NCBI RefSeq assembly: GCF_016026235.1 | Contig: NZ_CP065613.1 | Reading direction: 5' to 3' (one strand) | DNA from: Escherichia coli | Lineage (GTDB): Bacteria; Pseudomonadota; Gammaproteobacteria; Enterobacterales; Enterobacteriaceae | DNA: 64,000 nt | Part shown: piece after piece, positions 2,441 through 55,464 of the stretch | How the letters are laid out: each line of letters starts with the position of its first letter | Numbering within the stretch: the first letter of the stretch is position 1 | Translations under genes and position numbers: made by a program | The notes under the pieces: model-generated | Told to the model about the DNA's origin: nothing | Seen by the model: only the letters and a program-made list of their open reading frames with translations | Database searches by the model: none

Positions 2441-2477
2441 GTGATCAATTTCAAAATAAAAACAATGATCCGATAAA

Positions 2478-2497
2478 AATAAAACAGCGTTTCAATT
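2478..2497 (+). promoter_or_regulatory. Putative KdgR operator upstream of kdgT
   Basis: aataaaacagcgtttcaatt is a near-palindrome resembling the KdgR box; kdgT is a known KdgR regulon member. Confidence 0.45.
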
Positions 2498-2616
2498 GAT
2501 GTGGTTTTGATCACTTTTATTGATTAAATGAATGTCTATCTTCGTTTCCATCAACACTGATGCTCCATTGAGGAATTACGCATCAGCCCTTAAAAATATG
2601 CCGACAGGTGATGGAA

Positions 2617-3600: not shown

Positions 3601-3748
3601 ACCTGCTTCCTTAATCCCCACCGCCGGATGAACTAACGTTCGTCCGGTTTGCTATTGAGTTCCTGCCTGGATACTTACCGCGAAAACAGCACGCCTGACA
3701 TAAAATAAATATGGTCTAATGGGGAAATTTCTCGTGGAGAGGGAACAG

Positions 3749-4423: not shown

Positions 4424-4433
4424 CCCTCGGAGT

Positions 4434-4517
4434 GTAGGCCTGATAAGACGCTATCAGCGTCGCATCAGGCATCCTGCTCAAATGCCGGATGCGGCGTAAA
4501 CGCCTTATCCTGCCTAC
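4434..4517. repeat. BIME: two inverted REP elements
   Basis: gtaggcctgataagacgc...cgcatcaggc and gccggatgcggcgtaaacgccttatcc...ctac. Confidence 0.85.
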
Positions 4518-4528
4518 AAATGCGGAGT

Positions 4529-5902
4529 TTAACTCCGCTTATACAGCGGCAACCAAATCACCAGCCGTAAACCGCCCAGCGGGCTGTCTTCTGCTTTAAC
4601 CCAGCCACGATGCTGCTGAATGGCGGTTTCAACAATCGCCAGCCCCAATCCTGTACCGCCAGATTCACGATCGCGTGCTTCATCGGTCCGATAGAACGGA
4701 CGGAAAATCTGTTCGCGATCTTCCGGGCTAACGCCAGGACCATCGTCGTCCACCGTAATGGTGATACCGTCTTTATCTACCGCAAAGCCCACTTCAATCT
4801 TCGTATGGGAATAACGCAGAGCATTACGAACAATGTTTTCCAGCGCACTTTCCAGGGCGTTCGGATTGCCGTACAGCGGCCACGGCCCAGGCGGGAAGTT
4901 AACTGTCAACGACTTGCCCATTTGCTCGGCTTCGAACGCCGCGTTATCCAGCACTTCACTCCACAACTGGTTGGCTTTGATGGTTTCGCTAACCAGCGCG
5001 TTTTTTTGCTGATTACGTGACATCACCAACAGATCGTTGATCATGCTGTCCAGACGTTGCGCTTCGGTTTCAATACGCTCCAGTTCCTTGCTTTCACCGC
5101 TACGACGGCGCAGTAACGCCGTACCCAGTTGCAGACGCGTCAGCGGGGTGCGCAGCTCGTGAGAGATATCAGAAAGCAGACGCTGCTGAGAGGTCATCAT
5201 GCGCTCCAGCGCGGTGACCATCTGGTTAAAACTGGCACCTGCGGCAAGGAATTCCTGTGGCCCCGCTTCCAGTTCCGGGTGCTGGCGTAAGTTTCCCTGG
5301 GCAACTTCATCGGCAGCGTTTTTCAGCTTACGCGCCGGTTTTGCCAGACTCCAGGCCAACCACAACAGCAGCGGCGTACTGACCAACATGGTGACAATCA
5401 GCAGTAATAGCGGGCGGTCAAACAGTAAGTTAATGAAATCGGATTGAGAACTGCTGGCCGGACGAATCAGATAAAGTTGGTAATTATCTTCGCCATCACG
5501 CACGGAGAACGGACCGACCAGTTCCACGCGGCCATACTTTTTCTTCTGCGGATGATCGGCGTTATCGGCCTGACCAATAAAGTTACGAATGATCTGCATT
5601 TCGCTGCGTTCAGCGCCGATCACGCGGCCTTCGGTGGTCACCAATAACAAACGCTGTCCTGGCGGTGCCCACTTATCAATCGCCCGGAACAGACGCCGCC
5701 ACCACATTAAATCGTTGGGCGGATCGTTCGCCAGCTCCGCTTCAACATGCTGCTCAATCATCAGCCCCTGACGCTGTTCGCTATCCAGAAGCTCGGTCAT
5801 CTGGCGTGAATCGAGCTTGGGTAACATCAAAACCAACATCAACACCAGCGCCAGCGTCAGCCAGAAGATGGCGAAGATGCGCGCGGTTAAGCTGCCTATC
5901 AT
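4529..5902 (-). CDS. cpxA: Envelope-stress sensor histidine kinase CpxA
   Basis: 457-aa ORF; TM segments, HAMP and histidine kinase motifs; overlaps cpxR by 4 bp. Confidence 0.96.
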   Translation of the reverse strand: MIGSLTARIFAIFWLTLALVLMLVLMLPKLDSRQMTELLDSEQRQGLMIEQHVEAELANDPPNDLMWWRRLFRAIDKWAPPGQRLLLVTTEGRVIGAERSEMQIIRNFIGQADNADHPQKKKYGRVELVGPFSVRDGEDNYQLYLIRPASSSQSDFINLLFDRPLLLLIVTMLVSTPLLLWLAWSLAKPARKLKNAADEVAQGNLRQHPELEAGPQEFLAAGASFNQMVTALERMMTSQQRLLSDISHELRTPLTRLQLGTALLRRRSGESKELERIETEAQRLDSMINDLLVMSRNQQKNALVSETIKANQLWSEVLDNAAFEAEQMGKSLTVNFPPGPWPLYGNPNALESALENIVRNALRYSHTKIEVGFAVDKDGITITVDDDGPGVSPEDREQIFRPFYRTDEARDRESGGTGLGLAIVETAIQQHRGWVKAEDSPLGGLRLVIWLPLYKRS

Positions 5903-6597
5903 GAAGCAGAAACCATCAGGTAGCCGCGACCACGCAAGGTTTTAAACCACGGGTGACCATCTTTACGATCCGGCAGTTTACGACGCAGGTTGGAAATGTG
6001 CATATCGATAGCGCGGTCGAAAGGCGTCAGGCGTTTGCCCAGCACTTCCTGGCTTAAATGTTCACGGGAAACCACCTGACCCAGATGCTGTGCCAGCAAA
6101 TAGAGCAGGGTAAACTCAGTACCGGTTAACTCCAGCGTTTGCCCGTCGAAGCTGGCTTCCTGACGGCCTGGATTCAGCACTAAGGCATCAACTTCCAGTG
6201 TCGGTGAACCGTTGTCGTTGTTTTGCTGTTGCTCGCTCCAGTGCGAACGGCGCAGGATCGCGCGAATACGTGCCACCAGCTCACGATCATTAAACGGTTT
6301 CGGGAGATAGTCATCTGCGCCCAGCTCAAGGCCGAGAACGCGATCAAGTTCACTGCCGCGCGCCGTCAACATAATGACAGGCGTCTGGTGTGTCTGGCGA
6401 AGTGCTTTTAATGTGTCGATACCATTTTTCTTCGGCATCATTACGTCAAGCAAAAGTAAATCAATGCTGTCGTCCAGAAGATCAAGCGCCTGTTCCCCAT
6501 CGTGGGCAACAATCACGTTGAAGCCTTCCATCTCGAGCAGCTCCTTTAATAGGGAAGTCAGCTCTCGGTCATCATCAACTAACAGGATTTTATTCAT
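5899..6597 (-). CDS. cpxR: OmpR-family response regulator CpxR
   Basis: 232-aa ORF; receiver domain (MNKILLVDDD...) plus winged-helix C-terminus. Confidence 0.96.
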   Translation of the reverse strand: MNKILLVDDDRELTSLLKELLEMEGFNVIVAHDGEQALDLLDDSIDLLLLDVMMPKKNGIDTLKALRQTHQTPVIMLTARGSELDRVLGLELGADDYLPKPFNDRELVARIRAILRRSHWSEQQQNNDNGSPTLEVDALVLNPGRQEASFDGQTLELTGTEFTLLYLLAQHLGQVVSREHLSQEVLGKRLTPFDRAIDMHISNLRRKLPDRKDGHPWFKTLRGRGYLMVSAS

Positions 6598-6652
6598 TGT
6601 TTAAATACCTCCGAGGCAGAAATTACGTCATCAGACGTCGCTAATCCATGAC

Positions 6653-6667
6653 TTTACGTTGTTTTAC
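6653..6667 (-). promoter_or_regulatory. CpxR box in divergent cpxRA / cpxP promoter region
   Basis: Bottom strand reads gtaaaacaacgtaaa, i.e. GTAAA-N5-GTAAA. Confidence 0.7.
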
Positions 6668-6746
6668 ACCCCCTGACGCATGTTTGCAGCCTGAATCGTA
6701 AACTCTCTATCGTTGAATCGCGACAGAAAGATTTTGGGAGCAAATG

Positions 6747-7247
6747 ATGCGCATAGTTACCGCTGCCGTCATGGCCTCAACGCTGGCAGTCAGTTCATTA
6801 AGCCACGCTGCTGAAGTCGGTTCAGGCGATAACTGGCATCCGGGTGAAGAACTTACGCAGCGCAGTACGCAGAGCCATATGTTCGACGGCATAAGTTTAA
6901 CCGAACATCAGCGTCAGCAGATGCGAGATCTTATGCAACAGGCCCGGCACGAACAGCCTCCTGTTAATGTTAGCGAACTGGAGACAATGCATCGCCTTGT
7001 CACCGCAGAAAATTTTGATGAAAACGCTGTGCGCGCACAGGCAGAAAAAATGGCGAATGAGCAAATTGCTCGTCAGGTTGAGATGGCAAAAGTCCGCAAC
7101 CAAATGTATCGCCTGTTAACGCCGGAGCAGCAAGCGGTTTTAAACGAGAAACATCAACAACGAATGGAGCAGTTGCGCGACGTGACGCAATGGCAAAAAA
7201 GTTCATCGTTGAAGCTATTGAGTAGTAGCAACTCACGTTCCCAGTAG
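6747..7247 (+). CDS. cpxP: Periplasmic Cpx-pathway adaptor/inhibitor CpxP
   Basis: ORF track 6744..7247; start at second ATG ([11 protein letters not shown]...) giving 166 aa; signal peptide plus LTXXQ motifs. Confidence 0.93.
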
Positions 7248-7256
7248 TAAACCCTG

Positions 7257-7314
7257 TTTTCCTTGCCATAGACACCATCCCTGTCTTCCCCCACATGATG
7301 TGGGGGTTTTTTTT
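7257..7314 (+). ncRNA. cpxQ: CpxQ sRNA (processed from cpxP 3' UTR), inferred
   Basis: cpxP 3' UTR ending in strong hairpin cccccacatgatgtggggg (7288-7306) plus T-run; CpxQ is known to derive from this 3' UTR; 5' end not determinable here. Confidence 0.45.
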
Positions 7315-7315
7315 A
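7288..7315 (+). terminator. cpxP intrinsic terminator
   Basis: Perfect 8-bp GC-rich stem with 3-nt loop followed by 8 T. Confidence 0.85.
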
Positions 7316-7395
7316 TCCTCAATTTGCCTGCTGCTTAATGCATTGCGGATGATTTGCTTCCGTTATACTAGCGTCAGTTGATAGCGGGAGTATTT

Positions 7396-8298
7396 ATGAA
7401 TCAATCTTATGGACGGCTGGTCAGTCGGGCGGCGATTGCTGCGACGGCGATGGCTTCGCTGCTATTGCTGATTAAAATTTTTGCATGGTGGTATACCGGG
7501 TCGGTGAGTATTCTCGCCGCGCTGGTGGATTCGCTGGTGGATATCGGCGCGTCGTTGACGAATTTATTGGTAGTGCGATATTCCCTGCAACCTGCCGACG
7601 ATAATCACTCGTTTGGTCACGGTAAAGCTGAGTCCCTCGCGGCGCTGGCGCAAAGTATGTTTATCTCCGGTTCGGCACTATTCCTGTTTTTGACAGGCAT
7701 TCAACATCTGATATCTCCAACACCGATGACAGATCCAGGCGTCGGGGTTATCGTGACAATTGTGGCGCTAATTTGTACGATTATCCTTGTCTCGTTTCAG
7801 CGTTGGGTGGTGCGCCGGACGCAAAGCCAGGCGGTGCGGGCTGATATGCTACATTACCAGTCTGATGTTATGATGAACGGCGCAATTCTGCTGGCGCTGG
7901 GGTTGTCCTGGTACGGCTGGCATCGCGCCGATGCTCTGTTTGCATTGGGAATCGGCATCTATATTTTATATAGCGCGTTACGCATGGGATATGAGGCGGT
8001 ACAGTCATTACTGGATCGCGCATTACCTGATGAGGAACGGCAAGAAATTATTGATATCGTGACTTCCTGGCCGGGTGTTAGCGGCGCTCACGATCTTCGC
8101 ACGCGGCAGTCAGGGCCGACCCGCTTTATTCAGATTCATTTGGAAATGGAAGACTCTCTGCCTTTGGTTCAGGCACATATGGTGGCGGATCAGGTAGAGC
8201 AGGCTATTTTACGGCGTTTTCCGGGATCGGATGTGATTATCCATCAGGACCCCTGTTCCGTCGTACCCAGGGAGGGTAAACGGTCTATGCTTTCATAA
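7396..8298 (+). CDS. fieF: Cation-diffusion facilitator Fe/Zn efflux protein
   Basis: ORF track 7378..8298; start at ATG 7396 ([19 protein letters not shown]...) giving 300 aa. Confidence 0.93.
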
Positions 8299-9441: not shown

Positions 9442-9497
9442 TGATTTCGGAAAAAGGCAGATTCCTTTAGCCTGAAACCGATGACAGAAGCAAAAAT

Positions 9498-9595
9498 GCC
9501 TGATGCGCTTCGCTTATCAGGCCTACGTGAATTCTGCAATTTATTGAATTTACAAACTTTTGTAGGCCGGATAAGGCGTTCGCGCCTCATCCGGC
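9498..9595. repeat. BIME: two inverted REP elements
   Basis: gcctgatgcgcttcgcttatcaggcctac ... gtaggccggataaggcgttcgcgcctcatccggc. Confidence 0.85.
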
Positions 9596-9760
9596 ATCGA
9601 TAAAGCGCACTTTGTCAGCAATATGAGGCGGATTTCTTCCGCCTTTTTAACCCCTCAACATATACCCGCAAGTTATAGCCAATCTTTTTTTATTCTTTAA
9701 TGTTTGGTTAACCTTCTGGCACGCTTTGCTCATCACAACACAACATAAGAGAGTCGGGCG

Positions 9761-16612: not shown

Positions 16613-16700
16613 GCCGGATGCGGCGTGAACGCCTTATCCCGCCTACACAAAATGGCATTGGCTCGTAGGCCTGATAAGACGCGTAAGCGTCGCATCAGGC
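16613..16700. repeat. BIME: two inverted REP elements
   Basis: gccggatgcggcgtgaacgccttatcccgcctac ... gtaggcctgataagacgcgtaagcgtcgcatcaggc. Confidence 0.85.
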
Positions 16701-16735
16701 GAGCAGCATCAGGCAATCGATTCAGGTGCCTGACA

Positions 16736-19783: not shown

Positions 19784-19797
19784 TCTCTTCCATGCAG

Positions 19798-19823
19798 AGG
19801 CGCCGCAAGGCGCCTTATTTTTT
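19798..19823 (+). terminator. zapB intrinsic terminator
   Basis: Hairpin aggcgcc-gcaa-ggcgcct then tattttttac. Confidence 0.85.
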
Positions 19824-20538
19824 ACTTCACTGTATTTTTAGCAGACAACATAATCTCCATCGCCTGTTGGCGATATTTATCTGCCGTATCTGGCTCCATT
19901 AATGCAATGATCCCCACAGCCCTGGGGGTGTCTTCAAGATAAACACTGATGGTTCTTTTCTGCTGACCATCAAAATTTATCAACACATCCTGATACTTAC
20001 AGGTGAAATGTTTGGCATTACAATCATGAAACTGGAAGGTTTCTTCATTGTATTGATCCTTGAGATTGTCTCGCTGCATCTTCTTTAACTCTTCCAGCGA
20101 GTCATCGGCGCTACGTCCTGCGGGCAGGCGGAAAGCAGAAATAAAGACGCTATTATCTTCACTTCTTATATCAATGGTTTTATCAGTACTAATAGAAACC
20201 GTATTCCAGTGTCGGTTTGGGACAGTCACGGAAATAGCTGCCTTCTCAAACGTATAGTGCCACGGGGTGAACAGACGAAACGTATTGCCGACGTTGGATA
20301 AAAGCAGGACTCCCAATACCCAACAGCACCCGCGAGTAAAACTGGCGAAGTTACGCGTTTTTTTAGTGAATGTGCACAGAATACCTGACACAAGCACGGG
20401 AAGTAATAACGGCCCAAGAAGTACTGAACCGATATACTCGCCAACCATCCCAGGATCTCCAGTAAGCAAGTTACTGTGCTGAAGATGACTAAGAAAAATG
20501 GTTATTATCCATAGTATTAATAAGATAACGTATCTCAT
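19822..20538 (-). CDS. Uncharacterised integral membrane protein, islet paralog B (3 predicted TM helices plus ~150-aa C-terminal domain with CX6C pair)
   Basis: 238-aa ORF; hydrophobic segments near residues 3-18, 34-56, 70-84; about one-third identical to the upstream ORF; AT-rich; not part of the K-12 gene order as recalled. Confidence 0.75.
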   Translation of the reverse strand: MRYVILLILWIITIFLSHLQHSNLLTGDPGMVGEYIGSVLLGPLLLPVLVSGILCTFTKKTRNFASFTRGCCWVLGVLLLSNVGNTFRLFTPWHYTFEKAAISVTVPNRHWNTVSISTDKTIDIRSEDNSVFISAFRLPAGRSADDSLEELKKMQRDNLKDQYNEETFQFHDCNAKHFTCKYQDVLINFDGQQKRTISVYLEDTPRAVGIIALMEPDTADKYRQQAMEIMLSAKNTVK

Positions 20539-20570
20539 ATCAATCCATTATTATTAACATGCACATCAGA

Positions 20571-21257
20571 TCATTGACGAGCAGAAAGCATCATTTTCAT
20601 TACTTCTTCTTGATATTCGTCCAAATAATCTGGGTCGATAGCTGCGACCAGTTGTATCAAATTAGTGTTATCCAGTAGAGTCATGAAAATAGCATGTCTT
20701 ACTTTGCCATCACTCATTGTTTGCACTCCTTCCTGATAAGCGCAGGCAAATCCCTGAACATCACAAACATGCATTTCTGCAGTTCCGTTTTGAGTCGCGG
20801 TAAGTTCCTCGATTGAATGCACACCGAGTTCATTTTGTGAGAAGGCAACAATAGCTAAAATAGCATGGGCATCCCGGGTCACCAGGGTTGGTCCTTGTTT
20901 TACTATATTGGCAACCCACTGTTTGCTCGGAACCGTGACGGTGATACCTGGCTCCGGGAAAGTATAATCCCATATGCTGTGTCGTTCCCACACCGTATAG
21001 CTGCTATAGATAAGAAATAATCCCATTAACCAACAAGTGCCGCGAATAAAGCTGCGGCTGCTTCTTTTTTTTATCGTTATACAGATTATTGTGGCGATAA
21101 TAAATGATAAGGCAAGTGGGTTAAAAAATACGTTAGCAAAATATAAAATCATTTCACCCGCGTTGCCAGATAAAAGAAATTTGTAGCGGAAATGGTTAAC
21201 GGCTATAAGTAATAAATATATAAATAAAAGAATAATATTCTGCATGAATACGTCCAT
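20571..21257 (-). CDS. Uncharacterised integral membrane protein, islet paralog A (3 predicted TM helices plus ~150-aa C-terminal domain with CX6C pair)
   Basis: 228-aa ORF; alternative start at ATG 21245 (MQNIILL...) has a slightly better GGA spacer; paralogous to 19822..20538; AT-rich. Confidence 0.75.
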   Translation of the reverse strand: MDVFMQNIILLFIYLLLIAVNHFRYKFLLSGNAGEMILYFANVFFNPLALSFIIATIICITIKKRSSRSFIRGTCWLMGLFLIYSSYTVWERHSIWDYTFPEPGITVTVPSKQWVANIVKQGPTLVTRDAHAILAIVAFSQNELGVHSIEELTATQNGTAEMHVCDVQGFACAYQEGVQTMSDGKVRHAIFMTLLDNTNLIQLVAAIDPDYLDEYQEEVMKMMLSARQ

Positions 21258-21263
21258 GTATAA

Positions 21264-21288
21264 AAAAGGGGAATTTAATTCCCCTTTT
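21264..21288 (-). terminator. rraA intrinsic terminator (bidirectional hairpin)
   Basis: Perfect 11-bp stem aaaaggggaat-tta-attcccctttt; on the minus-strand transcript it is followed by a U-tract. Confidence 0.8.
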
Positions 21289-21304
21289 AACGCATGGCAG
21301 ATAC

Positions 21305-27071: not shown

Positions 27072-29429
<2,358 letters not shown>

Positions 29430-29433
29430 TTAG

Positions 29434-29685
<252 letters not shown>

Positions 29686-29695
29686 GACCGGATTT

Positions 29696-29725
29696 CCGAA
29701 AAAAGCGCCGCACGGCGCTTTTTTT
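29696..29725. terminator. Bidirectional intrinsic terminator between rpmE and yiiX
   Basis: Hairpin aaagcgccg-ca-cggcgcttt flanked by an A-run on the left and T-run on the right. Confidence 0.8.
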
Positions 29726-29745
29726 GTGCCTGAATTTTGGTCGTA

Positions 29746-30354
29746 TCACCACGAAAACAGCGGCCATTCTTTGGCGACAGTGGTGAGTTGTGGCGCATCG
29801 AAAACGGCTTGTGGTGAGACCACCGTTTCCTCAAGCGGGATATTTTTGCCGTAGCGTTCTTTGAGCTTTGCCTGAACCAGCGGGTTGCTGAGATCGAACT
29901 CTTTCAACTTCTGCTGCTCGCCCACGCGCATTCCCAGCGCGTTCTGGTAAACCTTCCACACCACTTCCGAACAGTACTGGCGATCGTCGCTCCATGAGAA
30001 GCTGAAATCATACGGTTTACCGAGATAACGTTTTGTCGTTTGCGCCAGTTTTTGCTGTTGTTCAACACTCAGTCCGCCTTCAACGCGGCGAACGACGTAT
30101 TTGCCCTTTTCACCATGGGCGATCCACTGCTTGAGCGGGGTGTATTTCACCGGGCCGACCGCTTCAAAAACGTAGGGCTTTTTGTTGCGTATCACCAGCA
30201 TACCGGTGTGGCTGTAATCGGAATGGGTCGCCAGTTGGATCGCTTTACTTTGCGATGAGCGAGAGATTTGAAAGATGATGTCGCCGGTTTGCGGCTGCCA
30301 GGCAAAGGCAGGTACAGAAACCAGCAGGCTGAGGATCAGCAGCCTGTTTTTCAT
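29746..30354 (-). CDS. yiiX: Putative lipid-binding hydrolase YiiX
   Basis: 202-aa ORF with signal peptide. Confidence 0.88.
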   Translation of the reverse strand: MKNRLLILSLLVSVPAFAWQPQTGDIIFQISRSSQSKAIQLATHSDYSHTGMLVIRNKKPYVFEAVGPVKYTPLKQWIAHGEKGKYVVRRVEGGLSVEQQQKLAQTTKRYLGKPYDFSFSWSDDRQYCSEVVWKVYQNALGMRVGEQQKLKEFDLSNPLVQAKLKERYGKNIPLEETVVSPQAVFDAPQLTTVAKEWPLFSW

Positions 30355-30411
30355 AGTTAAACGTCCATGTATAAAAAGCGGTGGGTCGCAGACAACGTGC
30401 TCGTTGTTTAT

Positions 30412-30508
30412 GCCGGATGCGGCGTGAACGCCTTATCCGGCCTACAAGTTCGTGCAAATTCAATAAATTGCAATATGACGTAGGCCTGATAAGCGTAGCG
30501 CATCAGGC
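30412..30508. repeat. BIME: two inverted REP elements with AT-rich spacer
   Basis: gccggatgcggcgtgaacgccttatccggcctac ... gtaggcctgataagcgtagcgcatcaggc. Confidence 0.85.
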
Positions 30509-30537
30509 GATTCCACTCCGCGCCGCTCATTTCCGCT

Positions 30538-30855
30538 TTAGTATTCCCACGTCTCCGGGTTAATCCCCATCTCACGCATGATCTCTTTTGCCGCTTCCGG
30601 GATTTCGTCGCTGCGCTCTTTACGCAGATCGGCATCATCCGGCAAAGGTTGCCCGGTAAAGGCATGCAGAAACGCTTCGCACAGCAGCTCGCTGTTGGTA
30701 GCGTGACGCAGGTTGTTCACCTGACGACGCGTGCGTTCATCGGTGAGGATTTTTAACACCTTAAGAGGAATGGAAACCGTAATCTTTTTGACTTGTTCAC
30801 TCTTCTTGCCGTGCTCAGCGTATGGGCTGATATATTCGCCGCTCCATTCAGCCAT
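30538..30855 (-). CDS. metJ: Methionine repressor MetJ
   Basis: ORF track 30538..30993; start at ATG 30855 ([35 protein letters not shown]...) giving 105 aa. Confidence 0.95.
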
Positions 30856-31044
30856 GAGATACTTAATCCTCTTCGTCAATAAATTGAGATCAGACCACAC
30901 AATTAATGTAGGTACTGACCGTAAACCCGCATAGTTTACCGTACAGGCGTTACCGTGACATCGTGTAATGCACCTGTCGGCGTGATAATGCATATAATTT
31001 TAACGGCTATTTGGGATTTGCTCAATCTATACGCAAAGAAGTTT

Positions 31045-31068
31045 AGATGTCCAGATGTATTGACGTCC
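31045..31068. promoter_or_regulatory. Tandem met boxes (MetJ operator) in metJ-metB divergent region
   Basis: agatgtcc agatgtat tgacgtcc: tandem 8-bp repeats close to AGACGTCT. Confidence 0.7.
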
Positions 31069-31131
31069 ATTAACACAATGTTTACTCTGGTGCCTGACAT
31101 TTCACCGACAAAGCCCAGGGAACTTCATCAC

Positions 31132-32292
31132 ATGACGCGTAAACAGGCCACCATCGCAGTGCGTAGCGGGTTAAATGACGACGAACAGTATGGTTGCGTT
31201 GTCCCACCGATCCATCTTTCCAGCACCTATAACTTTACCGGATTTAATGAACCGCGCGCGCATGATTACTCGCGTCGCGGCAACCCAACGCGCGATGTGG
31301 TTCAGCGTGCGCTGGCAGAACTGGAAGGCGGTGCTGGTGCAGTACTTACTAATACCGGCATGTCCGCGATTCACCTGGTAACGACCGTCTTTTTGAAACC
31401 TGGCGATCTGCTGGTTGCGCCGCACGACTGCTACGGCGGTAGCTATCGCCTGTTCGACAGTCTGGCGAAACGCGGTTGCTATCGCGTGTTGTTTGTTGAT
31501 CAAGGCGATGAACAGGCATTACGGGCAGCGCTGGCAGAAAAACCCAAACTGGTATTGGTAGAAAGCCCAAGTAATCCATTGTTACGCGTCGTGGATATTG
31601 CGAAAATCTGCCATCTGGCAAGGGAAGTCGGGGCGGTGAGCGTGGTGGATAACACCTTCTTAAGCCCGGCATTACAAAATCCGCTGGCATTAGGTGCCGA
31701 TCTGGTGTTGCATTCATGCACGAAATATCTGAACGGTCACTCTGACGTGGTGGCTGGCGTGGTGATTGCTAAAGAACCGGACGTTGTCACTGAACTTGCC
31801 TGGTGGGCAAACAATATTGGCGTGACGGGCGGCGCGTTTGACAGCTATCTGCTGCTACGCGGGTTGCGAACGCTGGTGCCGCGTATGGAGCTGGCGCAGC
31901 GCAACGCGCAGGCGATTGTGAAATATCTGCAAACCCAGCCGTTGGTGAAAAAACTGTATCACCCGTCGCTGCCGGAAAATCAGGGGCATGAAATTGCCGC
32001 GCGTCAGCAAAAAGGCTTTGGCGCAATGTTGAGTTTTGAACTGGATGGCGATGAGCAGACGCTGCGTCGTTTCCTGGGCGGGCTGTCGTTGTTTACGCTG
32101 GCGGAATCATTAGGGGGAGTGGAAAGTTTAATCTCTCACGCCGCAACCATGACACATGCAGGCATGGCACCAGAAGCGCGTGCTGCCGCCGGGATTTCCG
32201 AGACGCTGCTGCGTATCTCCACCGGTATTGAAGATGGCGAAGATTTAATTGCCGACCTGGAAAATGGCTTCTGGGCTGCAAACAAGGGGTAA
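31132..32292 (+). CDS. metB: Cystathionine gamma-synthase
   Basis: ORF track 30955..32292; start at ATG 31132 (MTRKQATIAVRSGLNDDEQYG...) giving 386 aa; PLP-enzyme motifs. Confidence 0.96.
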   Translation: MTRKQATIAVRSGLNDDEQYGCVVPPIHLSSTYNFTGFNEPRAHDYSRRGNPTRDVVQRALAELEGGAGAVLTNTGMSAIHLVTTVFLKPGDLLVAPHDCYGGSYRLFDSLAKRGCYRVLFVDQGDEQALRAALAEKPKLVLVESPSNPLLRVVDIAKICHLAREVGAVSVVDNTFLSPALQNPLALGADLVLHSCTKYLNGHSDVVAGVVIAKEPDVVTELAWWANNIGVTGGAFDSYLLLRGLRTLVPRMELAQRNAQAIVKYLQTQPLVKKLYHPSLPENQGHEIAARQQKGFGAMLSFELDGDEQTLRRFLGGLSLFTLAESLGGVESLISHAATMTHAGMAPEARAAAGISETLLRISTGIEDGEDLIADLENGFWAANKG

Positions 32293-32294
32293 AA

Positions 32295-34727
32295 ATGAGT
32301 GTGATTGCGCAGGCAGGGGCGAAAGGTCGTCAGCTGCATAAATTTGGTGGCAGTAGTCTGGCTGATGTGAAGTGTTATTTGCGTGTCGCGGGCATTATGG
32401 CGGAGTACTCTCAGCCTGACGATATGATGGTGGTTTCTGCCGCCGGTAGCACCACTAACCAGTTGATTAACTGGTTGAAACTAAGCCAGACCGATCGTCT
32501 CTCTGCGCATCAGGTTCAACAAACGCTGCGTCGCTATCAGTGCGATCTGATTAGCGGTCTGCTACCCGCTGAAGAAGCCGATAGCCTCATTAGCGCTTTT
32601 GTCAGCGACCTTGAGCGCCTGGCGGCGCTGCTCGACAGCGGTATTAACGACGCAGTGTATGCGGAAGTGGTGGGCCACGGGGAAGTATGGTCGGCACGCC
32701 TGATGTCTGCGGTACTTAATCAACAAGGGCTGCCAGCGGCCTGGCTTGATGCCCGCGAGTTTTTACGCGCTGAACGCGCCGCACAACCGCAGGTTGATGA
32801 AGGGCTTTCTTACCCGTTGCTGCAACAGCTGCTGGTGCAACATCCGGGCAAACGTCTGGTGGTGACCGGATTTATCAGCCGCAACAACGCCGGTGAAACG
32901 GTGCTGCTGGGGCGTAACGGTTCCGACTATTCCGCGACACAAATCGGTGCGCTGGCGGGTGTTTCTCGCGTAACCATCTGGAGCGACGTCGCCGGGGTAT
33001 ACAGTGCCGACCCGCGTAAAGTGAAAGATGCCTGCCTGCTGCCGTTGCTGCGTCTGGATGAGGCCAGCGAACTGGCGCGCCTGGCGGCTCCCGTTCTTCA
33101 CGCCCGTACTTTACAGCCGGTTTCTGGCAGCGAAATCGACCTGCAACTGCGCTGTAGCTACACGCCGGATCAAGGTTCCACGCGCATTGAACGCGTGCTG
33201 GCCTCCGGTACTGGTGCGCGTATTGTCACCAGCCACGATGATGTCTGTTTGATTGAGTTTCAGGTGCCCGCCAGTCAGGATTTCAAACTGGCGCATAAAG
33301 AGATCGACCAAATCCTGAAACGCGCGCAGGTACGCCCGCTGGCGGTTGGCGTACATAACGATCGCCAGTTGCTGCAATTTTGCTACACCTCAGAAGTGGC
33401 CGACAGTGCGCTGAAAATCCTCGACGAAGCGGGATTACCTGGCGAACTGCGCCTGCGTCAGGGGCTGGCGCTGGTGGCGATGGTCGGTGCAGGCGTCACC
33501 CGTAACCCGCTGCATTGCCACCGCTTCTGGCAGCAACTGAAAGGCCAGCCGGTCGAATTTACCTGGCAGTCCGATGACGGCATCAGCCTGGTGGCAGTAC
33601 TGCGCACCGGCCCGACCGAAAGCCTGATTCAGGGGCTGCATCAGTCCGTCTTCCGCGCAGAAAAACGCATCGGCCTGGTATTGTTCGGTAAGGGCAATAT
33701 CGGTTCCCGTTGGCTGGAACTGTTCGCCCGTGAGCAGAGCACGCTTTCGGCACGTACCGGCTTTGAGTTTGTGCTGGCAGGTGTGGTGGACAGCCGCCGC
33801 AGCCTGTTGAGCTATGACGGGCTGGACGCCAGCCGCGCGTTAGCCTTCTTCAACGATGAAGCGGTTGAGCAGGATGAAGAGTCGTTGTTCCTGTGGATGC
33901 GCGCCCATCCGTATGATGATTTAGTGGTGCTGGACGTTACCGCCAGCCAGCAGCTTGCTGATCAGTATCTTGATTTCGCCAGCCACGGTTTCCACGTTAT
34001 CAGCGCCAACAAACTGGCGGGAGCCAGCGACAGCAATAAATATCGCCAGATCCACGACGCCTTCGAAAAAACCGGGCGTCACTGGCTGTACAATGCCACC
34101 GTCGGTGCGGGCTTGCCGATCAACCACACCGTGCGCGATCTGATCGACAGCGGCGATACTATTTTGTCGATCAGCGGGATCTTCTCCGGCACGCTCTCCT
34201 GGCTGTTCCTGCAATTCGACGGTAGCGTGCCGTTTACCGAGCTGGTGGATCAGGCGTGGCAGCAGGGCTTAACCGAGCCTGATCCGCGTGACGACCTCTC
34301 CGGCAAAGACGTAATGCGCAAGCTGGTAATTCTGGCGCGTGAAGCGGGTTACAACATTGAACCGGACCAGGTACGTGTGGAATCGCTGGTGCCTGCTCAT
34401 TGCGAAGGCGGCAGCATCGACCATTTCTTTGAAAATGGCGATGAACTTAACGAGCAGATGGTGCAACGGCTGGAAGCGGCCCGCGAAATGGGGCTGGTGC
34501 TGCGCTACGTGGCGCGTTTCGATGCCAACGGCAAAGCGCGTGTGGGCGTGGAGGCGGTGCGTGAAGACCATCCGCTGGCATCACTGCTGCCGTGCGATAA
34601 CGTCTTTGCCATCGAAAGCCGCTGGTATCGCGACAACCCGCTGGTGATCCGTGGGCCTGGCGCGGGGCGCGACGTCACCGCCGGGGCGATTCAGTCGGAT
34701 ATCAACCGGCTGGCACAGTTGTTGTAA
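32295..34727 (+). CDS. metL: Bifunctional aspartokinase II / homoserine dehydrogenase II
   Basis: 810-aa ORF starting 2 bp after the metB stop. Confidence 0.96.
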   Translation: MSVIAQAGAKGRQLHKFGGSSLADVKCYLRVAGIMAEYSQPDDMMVVSAAGSTTNQLINWLKLSQTDRLSAHQVQQTLRRYQCDLISGLLPAEEADSLISAFVSDLERLAALLDSGINDAVYAEVVGHGEVWSARLMSAVLNQQGLPAAWLDAREFLRAERAAQPQVDEGLSYPLLQQLLVQHPGKRLVVTGFISRNNAGETVLLGRNGSDYSATQIGALAGVSRVTIWSDVAGVYSADPRKVKDACLLPLLRLDEASELARLAAPVLHARTLQPVSGSEIDLQLRCSYTPDQGSTRIERVLASGTGARIVTSHDDVCLIEFQVPASQDFKLAHKEIDQILKRAQVRPLAVGVHNDRQLLQFCYTSEVADSALKILDEAGLPGELRLRQGLALVAMVGAGVTRNPLHCHRFWQQLKGQPVEFTWQSDDGISLVAVLRTGPTESLIQGLHQSVFRAEKRIGLVLFGKGNIGSRWLELFAREQSTLSARTGFEFVLAGVVDSRRSLLSYDGLDASRALAFFNDEAVEQDEESLFLWMRAHPYDDLVVLDVTASQQLADQYLDFASHGFHVISANKLAGASDSNKYRQIHDAFEKTGRHWLYNATVGAGLPINHTVRDLIDSGDTILSISGIFSGTLSWLFLQFDGSVPFTELVDQAWQQGLTEPDPRDDLSGKDVMRKLVILAREAGYNIEPDQVRVESLVPAHCEGGSIDHFFENGDELNEQMVQRLEAAREMGLVLRYVARFDANGKARVGVEAVREDHPLASLLPCDNVFAIESRWYRDNPLVIRGPGAGRDVTAGAIQSDINRLAQLL

Positions 34728-34808
34728 TTTCAGAAATTTAATAATGCCCGGTACTCATGTTTTCGGGTTTATGGTTTCTAATGAAATATATTGAATTATC
34801 ATAGGATT

Positions 34809-34838
34809 AGGCCGGATTAAGCGTTTACGACGAATCCG
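34809..34838. repeat. REP-like palindromic remnant downstream of metL
   Basis: gccggatt...aatccggc 8-bp stem with 14-nt loop; partial resemblance to REP; no T-run. Confidence 0.3.
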
Positions 34839-35004
34839 GCAAGAAGCAATAAGTACATGGTTAGTTTATATTTGCAGTCCGGTTTGCTTTGCATACCGGA
34901 TTTTCTTTTTCTTACCATCCTGAAGTTTTTTCATCTTCCCTGATTTTTCCTCACCATCATTGGTCATTTTTCGGTTGACGCCCTTCGGCTTTTCCTTCAT
35001 CTTT

Positions 35005-35036
35005 ACATCTGGACGTCTAAACGGATAGATGTGCAC
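35005..35036 (+). promoter_or_regulatory. Tandem met boxes (MetJ operator) upstream of metF
   Basis: acatctgg acgtctaa acggatag atgtgcac: four tandem 8-bp met-box-like repeats. Confidence 0.7.
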
Positions 35037-35072
35037 AACACAACATATAACTACAAGCGATTGATGAGGTAA

Positions 35073-35966
<894 letters not shown>

Positions 35967-36179
35967 ATAGTGTGGCTTTTGTGAAAATCACACAGTGATC
36001 ACAAATTTTAAACAGAGCACAAAATGCTGCCTCGAAATGAGGGCGGGAAAATAAGGTTATCAGCCTTGTTTTCTCCCTCATTACTTGAAGGATATGAACC
36101 TAAAACCCTTTTTTATAAAGCATTTGTCCGAATTCGGACATAATCAAAAAGCTTAATTACGATCAATTTGATCTACATC

Positions 36180-38474
<2,295 letters not shown>

Positions 38475-38483
38475 TCTGACCTT

Positions 38484-38520
38484 CTTCAGCGACTGCCTTT
38501 CAGGCAGTCGCTGAAGTTTC
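38484..38520 (+). terminator. katG intrinsic terminator
   Basis: Perfect 14-bp stem cttcagcgactgcc-ttt-caggcagtcgctgaag followed by tttcttt. Confidence 0.85.
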
Positions 38521-38567
38521 TTTACCGGCGTATAGTGTCCACAGGAAAACTACACACTGGATCTCTC

Positions 38568-39473
38568 ATGTCTGCCGCAGGAAAGAGCAACCCACTGGCA
38601 ATCAGTGGCCTGGTTGTGCTCACACTTATCTGGAGTTATAGCTGGATTTTCATGAAGCAAGTCACCAGCTACATCGGTGCCTTCGACTTTACCGCCTTAC
38701 GCTGCATTTTCGGCGCTCTCGTTTTATTCATCGTCCTTTTATTACGTGGTCGCGGAATGCGCCCGACACCGTTTAAATACACCTTAGCCATTGCCCTGTT
38801 ACAAACCTGCGGGATGGTTGGCCTGGCGCAGTGGGCGCTGGTCAGCGGCGGAGCGGGGAAGGTGGCGATCCTAAGCTATACCATGCCGTTCTGGGTGGTG
38901 ATTTTCGCCGCGTTGTTTCTCGGTGAACGCCTGCGACGTGGGCAATATTTCGCGATACTGATTGCCGCTTTCGGCTTATTTTTGGTGTTGCAGCCGTGGC
39001 AACTCGATTTCTCTTCGATGAAAAGTGCCATGCTGGCAATCCTCTCCGGCGTCAGTTGGGGGGCGAGCGCGATTGTTGCTAAACGTCTGTATGCCCGTCA
39101 TCCGCGCGTGGATTTATTGTCGTTAACATCCTGGCAGATGCTCTATGCGGCGCTGGTGATGAGTGTGGTCGCTTTACTGGTGCCGCAACGTGAAATTGAC
39201 TGGCAGCCCACCGTGTTCTGGGCGCTGGCCTACAGTGCGATTCTGGCGACGGCACTGGCGTGGAGCTTATGGTTGTTTGTATTGAAAAACTTGCCTGCCA
39301 GTATTGCCAGCTTAAGCACACTGGCCGTTCCCGTTTGCGGCGTACTCTTTTCCTGGTGGCTGCTCGGCGAGAATCCGGGGGCCGTTGAAGGTAGCGGTAT
39401 TGTGCTGATTGTGATGGCACTGGCGCTGGTGAGCCGTAAGAAAAAAGAAGCCGTTAGTGTAAAAAGGATCTGA
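38568..39473 (+). CDS. yijE: EamA/DMT-family transporter YijE
   Basis: ORF track 38535..39473; start at ATG 38568 ([26 protein letters not shown]...) giving 301 aa. Confidence 0.9.
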
Positions 39474-39499
39474 ATTTTTTCTTCATGTGGGGCGATCGC

Positions 39500-40117
39500 T
39501 TATTTAACAAAATAACGATAATGCCCCACCATCCGCCAGCTAAACAGCACATCTTCTTCCTGCGCACCTGCGCCAATGTTATGTATCACCAGCGGCGTAC
39601 CGTCGCGGGCGAAGCCATCTGAAACCACCCCAATATGTGCCAGCCCGTTATCTAATCGCCAGGAGACAATATCGCCCGCTTGATAGTCACTGGGGTTCTT
39701 GCTGATGGGGCGTGTTTTATCGTGGCGGGTAAACCAGGTTTCCAGATTAGGCACCCGACGGTGATCGATGTTGCTGTCCGGGCGCTTTAACTGCCATTTT
39801 TGCGGGTACTCGGCAAAATTCTTCGCCATATCTTCGTGCACCAGTTTCTGCAAATCGACCTTCTGGCTGCGCAATGCACGGATCACCACATCGGAACATA
39901 CCCCGCGTTCTTGCGGGACATCACCGCCAGGATAGGTAAGCTGCATATACGCCGGATCGTAAAATAGCGTGCTGCCGATTTGCTGTCTGGCACCGTCTGC
40001 GATGGCAAGGTTGGTATTGGCCTGGATTTGTACCACGGTTGGTGGAACGGCGGGAGATTTTAAGGAGTGGCTGGTAAATGCCGTTAGCAGGCTGAGCAGC
40101 GCCAGTGAAGCTTTCAT
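39500..40117 (-). CDS. yijF: DUF1287-family protein YijF
   Basis: 205-aa ORF with signal peptide. Confidence 0.88.
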   Translation of the reverse strand: MKASLALLSLLTAFTSHSLKSPAVPPTVVQIQANTNLAIADGARQQIGSTLFYDPAYMQLTYPGGDVPQERGVCSDVVIRALRSQKVDLQKLVHEDMAKNFAEYPQKWQLKRPDSNIDHRRVPNLETWFTRHDKTRPISKNPSDYQAGDIVSWRLDNGLAHIGVVSDGFARDGTPLVIHNIGAGAQEEDVLFSWRMVGHYRYFVK

Positions 40118-40248
40118 CTGGTTCGTCCGTGAAAATAAGAGTCACAGATTCGACCTTCCGGGCTAACGATTGTTCTGTGGAGAAAATGTCCAGAAGCGGA
40201 TAAAAAACTCCTGAACAACGTGGGAGTTTCAGATTACTGGCACAGAGT

Positions 40249-40346
40249 GCCGGATGCGGAGTGAACGCCTTATCCGGCCTACAAAAGCACGCAAATTCAA
40301 TATATTGCAGAGATTGCGTAGGCCTGATAAGCGTAGCGCATCAGGC
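40249..40346. repeat. BIME: two inverted REP elements with AT-rich spacer
   Basis: gccggatgcggagtgaacgccttatccggcctac ... gtaggcctgataagcgtagcgcatcaggc; near-copy of the BIME at 30412-30508. Confidence 0.85.
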
Positions 40347-40391
40347 AATTTTGCGTTCAAACTCCCGGACAAGCCGGGAGTTTGGAGTAGG

Positions 40392-41495
40392 TTATTCCCA
40401 CTCTTGCAGGAAACGCTGACCGTACTGGTCAGCTACCAGCAGTGCGGCGTAAACCTGATCTGGCGTCGCGCCGCCAGGCATGTTGTGGATGGTTTCACCT
40501 TCTGCACAAGATGCTTTTGCAACAATGCGCATTTTCGCCGGGACATCTTCTTTAATATCCAGTTGAGCGAGAGTTATTGGCAAACCTACCGCATGGCTAA
40601 GTGCAGCTACGGTTTCGATTTCCTCCACCGGCGCGTTTTCCAGTACCAGCTGCGTCAGCGTACCAAATGCCACTTTTTCACCGTGATAATAGTGATGCGC
40701 GTCCGGGATAGCGGTCAGGCCGTTATGCACCGCGTGAGCCGCCGCCAGCCCGCCGCTTTCAAAACCAACGCCGCTCAAATAGGTGTTCGCTTCAATCACG
40801 CGCTCCAGCGCCGGGGTTACTACATGCTGTTCGGCGGCAAGCATCGCTTTTTCGCCTTCTTCCAGCAGGGTGTTGTAGCACAGTTCAGCCAGTGCCAGCG
40901 CCGCCTGGGTGCACTTGCCGCCCGCCATGGTGGTCGCGCCGCTACGAGAGCAAGCACGCGCTTCAAACCAGGTTGCCAGCGCATCGCCGATACCCGCTGC
41001 TAACAGACGTGCAGGTGCGCCCGCGACGATTTTGGTGTCGACAATGACCATATTCGGGTTATTTGGCAACAGCAGATAGCGGTCAAACTCACCCTCATCG
41101 GTGTAGATAACAGACAATGCGCTGCACGGTGCATCGGTAGAGGCGATAGTCGGTGCGATCGCTACCGGAACACCCATGAAATGTGCCAGTGCTTTGGCAG
41201 TATCGAGGGTTTTTCCGCCACCGATACCGAGAATTGCGCCACACTGCGCAGTCTCCGCGATGCCACGCAGACGGTCGATCTCATTTTGCGAACATTCACC
41301 GCCAAACGGCGCAATTTCTACTACCAGTCCAGCATCTTTAAAGCTTTTCTCGACAGTGGATTGAGCAAAACCTAAAACAAATTTGTCACCTACCACTAAC
41401 CAGCGTTCTGCCAGCGGCTTCAGGTATTCGCCCAGACGATTAATCACATCAGCGCCCTGGATGTATTTACCCGGTGATTGAATAATGCGGTCCAT
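40392..41495 (-). CDS. gldA: Glycerol dehydrogenase
   Basis: ORF track 40392..41534; start at ATG 41495 ([28 protein letters not shown]...) giving 367 aa. Confidence 0.95.
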
Positions 41496-41505
41496 AATTG
41501 CTCCT

Positions 41506-42168
41506 TTAGAGATGAGTAGTGCCAAATGCGGCATTCCAGTCGTGTTCGAACTTCTCTATAGCTGACTCTACCGCAGGGGTGTTGAGCATTTGTTGCGCTA
41601 CATCTAAGGGCAGGGTGATGGATTCACATCCTGCCAGTAAACAGTCCAGCGCCTGACGCGGCGTTTTAAAGCTGGCTGCCAGCACCATGCTTTCTGGCGC
41701 GTGCATTTCTAACAGCGCTTGCAGCTCCTGAACCGTACGAATGCCGTCTCCGCCCTGGGCATCTACGCGGTTAACATACGGAGCAACGTATTTTGCCCCT
41801 GCCAGCGCGGCCAGTAACCCTTGTGCAGCACTGTACACTGCGGTGCCAAGCGTAGTAATACCCTCTTTTTTCAGCATCTTAATGGCGGCCAGACCTTCGG
41901 AAGTCACCGGGATTTTCACCACAATGCCCAGAATGGCATCACGCAGACGCTTCGCTTCTTCCACCATCCCCTGCGCGTCGCGGCTCATAGTCTGAGCAAA
42001 CAGAATGCCCTCATCACCAATCGTTTTTTGCAGACGCGGCAGCACTTCCCAGATGGACTCCTTGCTGGCAGCGATAATGCTCGGGTTAGTTGTCACCCCG
42101 GCAATCGGGAATATGCGTGCCAGACGTTCGACTTCTGCGACGTTAGCGGTGTCCAGATACAGTTCCAT
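41506..42168 (-). CDS. fsaB: Fructose-6-phosphate aldolase 2
   Basis: 220-aa ORF ([31 protein letters not shown]...). Confidence 0.95.
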
Positions 42169-46454: not shown

Positions 46455-48306
46455 ATGACGAATCGTATCTCTCGCCTCAAAACTGCACTGTTTGCCAATA
46501 CCCGTGAAATCTCGCTGGAGCGGGCGCTGCTTTATACCGCCAGCCATCGGCAAACCGAAGGCGAACCGGTGATATTGCGCCGGGCGAAAGCAACAGCGTA
46601 TATCCTTGAACATGTTGAAATTTCGATTCGTGATGAAGAACTGATTGCCGGTAACCGCACCGTAAAACCGCGCGCCGGGATTATGTCGCCGGAAATGGAC
46701 CCTTACTGGCTGCTGAAAGAGCTGGATCAATTCCCGACGCGTCCGCAGGACCGCTTTGCTATCAGCGAAGAAGATAAACGTATCTACCGTGAAGAGTTGT
46801 TCCCGTACTGGGAAAAACGTTCGATGAAAGATTTCATCAACGGGCAGATGACAGATGAAGTAAAAGCCGCGACCAACACGCAGATTTTCAGCATCAACCA
46901 GACGGATAAAGGCCAGGGGCACATTATTATTGATTACCCACGCCTGTTGAATCACGGTCTGGGTGAGCTGGTGGCACAGATGCAGCAACATTGTCAGCAA
47001 CAGCCGGAGAATCACTTTTATCAGGCCGCGTTGTTACTGCTGGAAGCCTCGCAGAAACACATTTTGCGTTACGCCGAACTGGCGGAAACGATGGCGGCAA
47101 ACTGCACAGATGCCCAGCGTCGCGAAGAACTGCTGACTATTGCGGAGATCTCTCGCCATAACGCCGAACATAAGCCGCAGACGTTCTGGCAGGCGTGCCA
47201 GTTATTCTGGTACATGAACATCATTCTGCAATACGAATCCAACGCCAGTTCGCTATCGCTGGGGCGCTTCGACCAGTATATGTTGCCGTTCTATCAGGCA
47301 TCATTAACCCAGGGCGAAGATCCGGCGTTCCTGAAAGAACTGCTCGAATCTTTATGGGTGAAATGCAACGACATCGTGCTGTTGCGCTCCACCAGCAGCG
47401 CGCGTTATTTCGCAGGTTTCCCGACCGGCTATACCGCACTGCTCGGCGGGTTAACCGAGAACGGACGTAGCGCGGTGAACGTGCTTTCGTTCCTTTGCCT
47501 TGATTATCAGCGATTGTCTGGAAAAAGGTCGCGATATTACCGATGGCGGCGCGCGTTATAACTTCTCCGGCGTACAGGGGATCGGTATCGCCAACCTGAG
47601 CGATTCTCTCCATGCGTTGAAAGGGATGGTTTTTGAGCAACAGCGTTTAAGTTTTGACGAATTGCTGTCGGTATTAAAAGCCAACTTTGCAACGCCAGAA
47701 GGCGAAAAAGTCCGTGCTCGCTTAATTAACCGCTTCGAGAAATACGGTAACGATATCGACGAGGTGGATAACATCAGCGCCGAACTGTTACGCCACTACT
47801 GCAAAGAAGTGGAAAAATACCAGAACCCGCGCGGCGGTTACTTCACGCCGGGATCGTATACCGTTTCTGCTCACGTCCCGTTGGGATCGGTGGTTGGCGC
47901 GACGCCAGACGGTCGTTTTGCCGGGGAACAACTGGCAGACGGCGGCTTGTCACCTATGCTGGGCCAGGACGCACAAGGGCCAACAGCGGTACTGAAGTCA
48001 GTCAGTAAGCTCGATAATACGCTGCTGTCTAACGGTACGTTGCTGAACGTGAAATTCACTCCGGCGACCCTGGAAGGTGAAGCGGGATTACGCAAACTGG
48101 CCGACTTCTTACGGGCGTTTACCCAGCTTAAGTTGCAGCATATTCAGTTTAACGTGGTGAACGCCGACACGTTGCGGGAAGCGCAACAGCGCCCACAAGA
48201 TTATGCCGGGCTGGTGGTGCGCGTTGCCGGATACAGCGCCTTCTTTGTCGAACTGTCGAAGGAGATCCAGGATGACATCATCCGCCGGACAGCGCATCAG
48301 CTGTAA
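46455..48306 (+). pseudogene. pflD: pflD (glycyl-radical formate acetyltransferase 2 homologue) disrupted by an internal deletion and frameshift
   Basis: N-terminal 350 aa read in frame 0 to ...NVLSFLCLD, then switch to frame +1 at about 47505 (ISDCLEKGRD...) through the glycyl-radical motif RVAGYSAFF to the normal stop; total 1852 bp versus about 2298 bp expected for the 765-aa protein. Confidence 0.75.
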
Positions 48307-50443: not shown

Positions 50444-50525
50444 GCCGGATGTGGCGTAAACGCCTTATCCAGTCTACCGCCGCGATCTGTAGGCCGGATA
50501 AGACGCGTCAAGCGTCGCATCCGGC
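50444..50525. repeat. BIME: two inverted REP elements
   Basis: gccggatgtggcgtaaacgccttatccagtctac ... gtaggccggataagacgcgtcaagcgtcgcatccggc. Confidence 0.85.
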
Positions 50526-55361: not shown

Positions 55362-55461
55362 GTAGGTCGGATAAGATGCGCAAGTATCGCATCCGACATT
55401 ATTGCGGCACTGGAGTTTGGCAACAGTGCCGGATGCGGCGCAAGCGCCTTATTCGGCCTAC
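55362..55461. repeat. BIME: two inverted REP elements
   Basis: gtaggtcggataagatgcgcaagtatcgcatccgac ... gccggatgcggcgcaagcgccttattcggcctac. Confidence 0.85.
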
Positions 55462-55464
55462 GTT

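Follow-up and report, generated by a model that had tools for sequence, protein, structure and literature searches.

What is the 97-nt palindromic sequence that occupies positions 30412–30508 in the spacer between metJ and yiiX, and does it have a function there? The question arose in a 64,000-nt stretch of Escherichia coli DNA, referred to here as the window, where a first-pass annotation had marked the sequence as one of seven REP/BIME clusters. We identify it as a BIME-1, the element also named RIB (reiterative IHF BIME) or RIP (repetitive IHF-binding palindromic element), that is, a non-coding, non-autonomous repeat of ~100–140 bp. Its Y and Z1 REPs lie tail-to-tail around a conserved AT-rich linker, L, that contains an IHF-consensus site. 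We place the probability of this explanation at about 96%.

By BLAST, positions 1–62678 of the window were colinear with K-12 MG1655 4,099,075–4,160,909 (rhaR to sthA) at 98–99% identity, and the nearest complete genome was that of E. coli FDAARGOS_943 (99.9–100% identity over the segments compared). Both results agree with the earlier remark that this is a typical E. coli strain, in which such clusters are ordinary. OxyS, the clpQY promoter, and the L31 leader were found with Rfam at their expected positions. Two other loci differed from K-12. Between zapB and rraA lies an AT-rich islet of ~1.5 kb (19784–21304), absent from K-12 and carried by 657 of the 5426 E. coli genomes, with two minus-strand paralogous ORFs, 19822–20538 (238 aa) and 20571–21257 (228 aa), that are 30% identical to each other. 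Each has a hydrophobic N-terminal region, membrane-spanning in appearance; both are annotated only as "hypothetical protein," and neither had a match in Pfam, NCBIfam, or PADLOC. The gene pflD (46455–48306) lacks 446 bp of the K-12 sequence (4145044–4145489; junction at 47503/47504) and is split into two ORFs, 46455–47561 and 47500–48306, and is thus probably a pseudogene in this strain.

When all seven intervals were read, the REP/BIME clusters proved to be real and their coordinates exact to the base. Each interval is bounded by a REP head (GCCKGATG) or tail (CTAC/GTAG), and the GCCGGATG...CTAC cores were recovered in every cluster on realignment. Together they hold 14 REPs, one Y-type and one Z-type per cluster in inverted arrangement, where chance would give none. 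The Y-REP consensus GCCGGATGCGGCGTRAACGCCTTATCCGGCCTAC (34 nt, up to three mismatches allowed) occurred at seven sites, one in each cluster, against 0.00 expected from 100 shuffles. Scanning the 64-kb window for REP tails revealed no further REPs, except for one match with a single mismatch at 1829–1840, presumed to be due to chance.

Since REP and RIP features are not given in the K-12 RefSeq annotation tables, their classification rests on sequence. PMC3333891 describes BIME-1 as z1 plus y, single copy and well conserved, with a long linker L that frequently includes an IHF site; BIME-2 as z2 plus y, with short linkers and in tandem arrays; and atypical BIMEs as chimeras of the two. According to the same paper, z REPs contain TGCC|TGAT sites and y REPs have none, and y was therefore equated with GCCGGATG and z with GCCTGATG. 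The assignment of Z1 and Z2 was deduced from these published text definitions together with naRNA4, a 77-nt Y-l-Z2 unit according to PMC4550694; because the naRNA4 model fits the long-loop REP at 4437–4514, long-loop REPs were taken as Z2 and the short-loop REPs beside L as Z1. Set against the published Y/Z1/Z2 and BIME-1/BIME-2 definitions, the clusters comprise three BIME-1, two BIME-2-type, and two atypical units, with three short-loop Z1, two long-loop Z2, and two atypical REPs as the partners of Y:

4434–4517, minus strand: BIME-2-type unit, head-to-head; long-loop Z2 4434–4470, 13-nt linker, Y 4484–4517; between the convergent genes yiiM and cpxA
9473–9611, minus strand: third BIME-1 (cluster 9498–9595), inverted relative to the other two; short-loop Z1 9498–9526, L 9527–9561, Y 9562–9595; tandem genes, after pfkA and before sbp
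16613–16700, plus strand: BIME-2-type unit, tail-to-tail; Y 16613–16646, 18-nt linker, long-loop Z2 16665–16700; tandem genes, in the glpK-glpX spacer inside glpFKX
30412–30508: the focal BIME-1, detailed below; tandem genes, after metJ and before yiiX
40249–40346, plus strand: second BIME-1; Y 40249–40282, L 40283–40317, short-loop Z1 40318–40346; tandem genes, after gldA and before yijF
50444–50525, plus strand: atypical BIME; diverged Y 50444–50477, 11-nt linker, hybrid REP 50489–50525; tandem genes, after eptC and before yijO
55362–55461, plus strand: atypical BIME unit, head-to-head; diverged REP 55362–55397, 30-nt linker, Y 55428–55461; tandem genes, after argE and before ppc

All seven clusters are intergenic and located at gene 3′ ends. 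After the K-12 annotation was mapped onto the window, one was found between convergent and six between tandem genes, with none between divergent genes, as the first-pass annotation had proposed. The gap from stop codon to REP, read from the sequence, is 3 nt for argE, 10 nt for yiiM, 11 nt for cpxA, 20 nt for eptC, 30 nt for metJ, 35 nt for glpK, 45 nt for gldA, and about 56 nt for pfkA. REPs, or palindromic units (PUs), are by definition imperfect palindromes of 30–40 nt that can fold into a hairpin with an internal mismatch. In the alignment of all 14, 96.9% of the cells were paired, compared with 30–45% when the partner was slid by one to three columns as a control, and compensatory changes were observed at four stem pairs (for example, G-C in Y versus U-A in Z). 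The stem includes a conserved G-U/mismatch region, the CTAC foot is invariant in 14 of 14, and the z-scores of the RNA folds ranged from −4.2 to −5.4.

The focal BIME-1 is in the 3′ untranslated region of metJ, upstream of yiiX, and has the following parts:

30385–30514: stretch of the yiiX-metJ spacer that distinguishes "filled" alleles from "empty" ones, which have TTA instead (pairwise alignment with strain WP4-S17-ESBL-08)
30396–30411: left flank motif of the BIME-1 family (from the 27-copy alignment described below)
30412–30445, plus strand: Y-type REP GCCGGATGCGGCGTGAACGCCTTATCCGGCCTAC, with 0 mismatches to the Y consensus; folds as a hairpin
30446–30479, plus strand: AT-rich L linker of 34 nt, with the core CAAATTCAATAAATTGCA at 30455–30472
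30480–30508, minus strand: Z1-type REP with a short loop, GCCTGATGCGCTACGCTTATCAGGCCTAC on the minus strand

The Z1 REP is of the short-loop GCCTGATGCG-CTACG-CTTATCAGGCCTAC type, as found beside L linkers. The binding consensus of IHF is WATCAANNNNTTR, and the ATTCAATAAATTG of the focal linker, which fits it at 8 of the 9 specified positions, is a putative IHF site. In K-12 coordinates, the L linkers of the pfkA/sbp, focal, and gldA/yijF copies lie within 4108572–4108669, 4127952–4128048, and 4137789–4137886, respectively.

The focal cluster and the one at 40249–40346 had been singled out as two near-copies with a shared spacer and a common subtype. The pair stands, as the two are 89% identical over their full length, and the subtype can now be named as BIME-1 (Y, an L linker of 34–35 nt, and a short Z1). 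The count of two does not: a third copy, at 9498–9595, is 88% identical to both when reverse-complemented, and was overlooked because it lies in the opposite orientation. When all seven clusters were set in the orientation of their Y REPs and compared two by two, the remaining pairs were all 50–78% identical. The spacer core CAAATTCAATAWATTGCA occurs three times, at 9535–9552 (minus strand), 30455–30472, and 40292–40309, against 0.01 occurrences expected by chance, and fits the IHF consensus at 8 of 9 positions. Judged by these sequence comparisons, 40249–40346 and 9498–9595 are sister copies of the focal BIME-1. Each of the three loci has one BIME-1 unit, not arranged in tandem, and at each, Z1, L, and inverted Y follow in this order in the transcript of the gene upstream, an agreement that with n = 3 is not significant. 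The second copy sits between the gldA stop codon (40392–40394) and the yijF start. Nothing found argues against the BIME-1 identification, and the REP arms aligned with Y and Z1 REPs of other loci.

The four other clusters can be read from their REPs as BIME-2-like or atypical relatives, in which the same Y REP is joined to Z2 or hybrid partners. Those at 4434–4517 and 16613–16700 resemble BIME-2, of which REP325 (the source of naRNA1-6), sucC-sucB, and tldD-yhdP are examples, in pairing Y with a long-loop Z2 across a short linker; the former includes a full-length match to the Rfam naRNA4 family, the Y-l-Z2 unit (4437–4514, 78.6 bits). Classical BIME-2s are tandem arrays of 2–12 REPs and gyrase targets, whereas those of the window are single units, and the focal BIME-1s differ from BIME-2 in their Z1 partner and L/IHF-consensus linker. 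The clusters at 50444–50525 and 55362–55461 are like the atypical BIMEs, not the focal subtype, as they join Y to hybrid or diverged REPs through non-canonical linkers: in the REP at 50489–50525, the upper stem and loop resemble those of Z2 and the foot, GCCGGATG, is Y-like, and the REP at 55362–55397 is diverged and begins with GTCGGATGCGATAC. Directly past the glpK-glpX BIME, part of the Z2 head is duplicated at 16701–16735 (GAGCAGCATCAGGCAATCGATTCAGGTGCCTGAC), which suggests an earlier rearrangement or the remnant of a further REP.

The short stop-codon gaps were a separate observation. In the ppc-argE BIME, just 3 nt separate the end of the Y REP from the argE stop codon (the interval 55462–55467), and the REPs at yiiM and cpxA are 10–11 nt away from theirs. 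A REP no more than about 15 nt from a stop codon can reportedly stall ribosomes and lower expression, a result attributed to Liang, Rudd, and Deutscher in 2015. At the distances measured, argE, yiiM, and cpxA might be subject to such stalling; metJ and gldA would not be.

The clusters had also been proposed as potential recombination hotspots, and strong presence/absence and copy-number polymorphism was indeed observed at four of the seven loci. Among 5426 complete E. coli genomes, the metJ-yiiX BIME-1 was present in 2713 (50%) and the gldA-yijF BIME-1 in 4588 (85%). The empty metJ-yiiX allele has a spacer of 59 bp, in which TTA replaces window positions 30385–30514, a clean insertion/deletion of ~127 bp. 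The glpK-glpX BIME was found in 447 of the 5426 genomes (8%) and is absent from K-12 (40 bp versus 134 bp); among other alleles of this spacer, that of UM146 holds a truncated Y with Z2, and that of 2011C-4315 a single degenerate hairpin resembling Y. At ppc-argE, K-12 has 2.8 units in tandem with a period of 123, and the window has one. These loci follow an already known pattern, in which BIME-1s are either present or absent, and BIME-2s and atypical BIMEs vary in length (PMC1187871, PMC3333891). The family is also abundant: a 337-nt query that included the metJ-yiiX BIME had a median of at least 40 matches per genome, with at least 40 in 4083 records.

Some of the alleles carried other sequences as well. 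In strain 2021CK-01784, the gldA-yijF slot (equivalent to window 40234–40356) holds, instead of the BIME-1, an unrelated GC-rich inverted-repeat element of ~155 bp, CCCCTCTCCCCTTTGGGGAGAGGGTTAGGGTGAGGGG..., at 205–385 of the extracted yijF-gldA spacer and with the same boundaries as the BIME-1; the slot is bracketed by the inverted repeats GGGAGTTT and AAACTCCC. This description of the minority allele comes from that one strain, and two others listed gave the same match pattern. The replacement element matched no Rfam family and may belong to the "Box C" class. Near the empty metJ-yiiX alleles, in the two strains compared (WP4-S17-ESBL-08, over region 1–8211 upstream of yiiX, and FCI51), yiiX has Rhs-element genes and an IS1 with a frameshift next to it, neither of which is in the window. 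WP4-S17-ESBL-08 also has an ISAs1 pseudogene beside yiiX and two extra genes between metL and metF, and an Rhs insertion of at least 5.5 kb was observed in several close matches to window 29000–42000.

A scan of genome contigs with the 17-nt L core pattern, which is short and AT-rich and gave about 95 singleton chance matches in unrelated taxa among the matches listed, recovered at least 25 further copies with the L core between REPs. At least eight were in E. coli E69, at least 15 in Pseudocitrobacter (at least five in Pseudocitrobacter vendiensis and at least 10 in a Pseudocitrobacter MAG), and at least two in likely contaminated assemblies. The last were perfect E. coli-type Y-L-Z1 elements on a contig labelled as an uncultured Bacteroides sp. 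MAG and on a 262-nt contig of Desulfosporosinus sp. OT, most likely as a result of enterobacterial contamination or mis-binning; among the matches listed, genuine copies came only from E. coli and Pseudocitrobacter. Of the 24 outside copies aligned, 22 were Y-L-Z1 with conserved flanks, and two from E69 had a Z2-type or long-loop REP in place of Z1. Aligned with the three of the window, they gave a 27-copy, 139-nt consensus with the flanks AGTGCGCTTTGTTCnT (left) and AATnTTGCGTTTGTCATCAGTCTCA (right). The L core was identical or near-identical in all 27, an invariance that holds by construction, as the outside copies were retrieved with that pattern. The repeated unit thus runs past both REPs into conserved flanks, and its ~139 nt agree with the published BIME-1 unit of 140 bp (PMC1187871). 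The pfkA/sbp copy has both flank motifs complete, the focal copy has the left one but not the right, and the 40249 copy has no left motif and a partial right one.

How such an element would act can be proposed by analogy with published work. When metJ is transcribed through its 3′ end, the REP hairpins would form in the mRNA, where they may impede 3′-to-5′ exonucleases and partly attenuate read-through into yiiX. In the DNA, IHF would bind and bend the L linker between two potential cruciforms. PMC3333891 reports that the hairpins formed by REPs in read-through transcripts shield the 3′ ends of mRNAs and attenuate transcription, and that IHF binds the L linker; PMC4550694 adds that HU and naRNA may bridge REP cruciforms. 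Gyrase prefers the Y REPs of BIME-2, and published work reports gyrase cleavage for the family. The family itself may have been spread and rearranged by the REP-associated Y1 (HUH) transposase TnpA-REP (RAYT), acting on single-stranded, GTAG-footed REP hairpins. According to PMC3333891, TnpA-REP binds the GTAG-footed hairpin in ssDNA and cleaves or recombines BIMEs, which would account for their spread and variability; the GTAG foot and stem mismatch, which that paper gives as needed in vitro, are both seen in the REP sequences of the window. An imperfect hairpin with a GTAG foot, the ssDNA target of a Y1 HUH transposase, is likewise the feature that REPs share with the subterminal hairpins of IS200/IS605 and with REPtrons (PMC3333891). 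Unlike those systems (TnpA-REP/RAYT), the elements of the window have no transposase gene inside or nearby, the tnpA-REP gene being outside the window, and they are therefore non-autonomous.

Whether the BIME-1 does anything for its host at this locus is a different matter. It might be a selfish or neutral repeat, left over from the proliferation of REPs and BIMEs and tolerated between metJ and yiiX, and we regard this as a genuine possibility, if a somewhat less than even one. The survey speaks in its favour: the copies are present in only 50% (metJ-yiiX), 85% (gldA-yijF), and 8% (glpK-glpX) of genomes, and the minority gldA-yijF allele fills the same slot with an unrelated element. Only one of the three BIME-1 copies, moreover, has its flank motifs complete. 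Since half of the strains have no metJ-yiiX copy and 15% no gldA-yijF copy, any function must be dispensable. However, the parts of the element that were not fixed by the search pattern, namely the REPs and flanks, are strongly conserved among 27 copies from two genera, the compensatory changes keep the REP stems paired, and IHF binding, effects on mRNA, and gyrase cleavage have all been published for the family. The neutral reading disputes local function only, and is compatible with the identification as BIME-1.

The opposite possibility is that the variation in BIME presence is not neutral but regulatory, a natural polymorphism that tunes metJ/yiiX, glpX, and ArgE; we consider it unlikely. 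The metJ BIME-1, present in 50% of strains, could alter the stability of the MetJ repressor mRNA or the read-through into yiiX; the glpK-glpX BIME inside glpFKX, present in 8%, could uncouple glpX expression from that of glpK; and stalling of ribosomes by the REP 3 nt past the argE stop codon could reduce the output of ArgE. If true, a mobile repeat would give strain-specific tuning of core metabolism.

We also considered an independent sRNA like ES036/CssrF, with a promoter and a terminator of its own, and find it very improbable. Two of the three BIME-1s exceed the gathering score of 37.6 bits for the Rfam family RF02751, ES036 (CssrF), at 30446–30487 (39.6 bits) and 9519–9560 (44.6 bits), Northern blotting has shown transcripts of CssrE and CssrF in Shigella (PMC3071730), and PMC4550694 reports about 80% of REP elements to be transcribed. 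Against this, the 40249 copy remained below the gathering score (40283–40325, 34.8 bits), and the Rfam model spans just the L linker and the REP edges, so that in effect it detects the repeat. We accordingly read ES036/CssrF as in effect a model of the BIME-1 linker, with which passing the score points to likeness of sequence and structure, not to an independent sRNA. Like naRNA4, this model derives from BIME transcripts. Consensus scans found no sigma-70-like promoter or intrinsic terminator inside or adjoining either of the BIMEs at 30412 and 40249, and any transcript would most simply come from processing of the metJ or gldA mRNA at its 3′ end.

Hardly any weight can be given, either, to the element being the Rho-independent terminator of metJ (or, at 40249, of gldA). 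Its position 30 nt (metJ) or 45 nt (gldA) past the stop codon and its stable GC-rich hairpins would suit such a role, and REPs can act as terminators or attenuators, as stated in PMC3333891. Yet on the transcribed strand neither hairpin is followed by a U-run, the terminator scan of the BIME was blank, the 97-nt sequence recurs at many unrelated loci, and empty-allele strains lack a BIME downstream of metJ altogether. Chance palindromes in GC-rich intergenic DNA can be dismissed outright, given seven and three observed matches against 0.00 and 0.01 in shuffles and 88–89% identity over 97–98 nt among the BIME-1 copies. All three of these readings (independent sRNA, dedicated terminator, and chance) were rejected.

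The BIME-1 identification is left with nothing substantive that sets the focal element apart from BIME-1/RIB/RIP of E. coli. It shares with them the tail-to-tail Y and Z1, the 34–35-nt L linker with an IHF-consensus core, the single copy, the extragenic position at the 3′ end of a transcription unit, the ~140-bp unit with its flanks, and the presence or absence among strains; only flank motifs are missing, on the right at the focal copy and on the left at 40249. The BIMEs of the window are textbook E. coli intergenic repeats, and their biology is already known. Naming them correctly keeps these repeats from being taken for sRNA genes, terminators, or novel palindromes. With four of the seven loci polymorphic in the survey of 5,426 genomes, they are useful strain markers and plausible sources of small differences in metJ, glpX, and argE expression.
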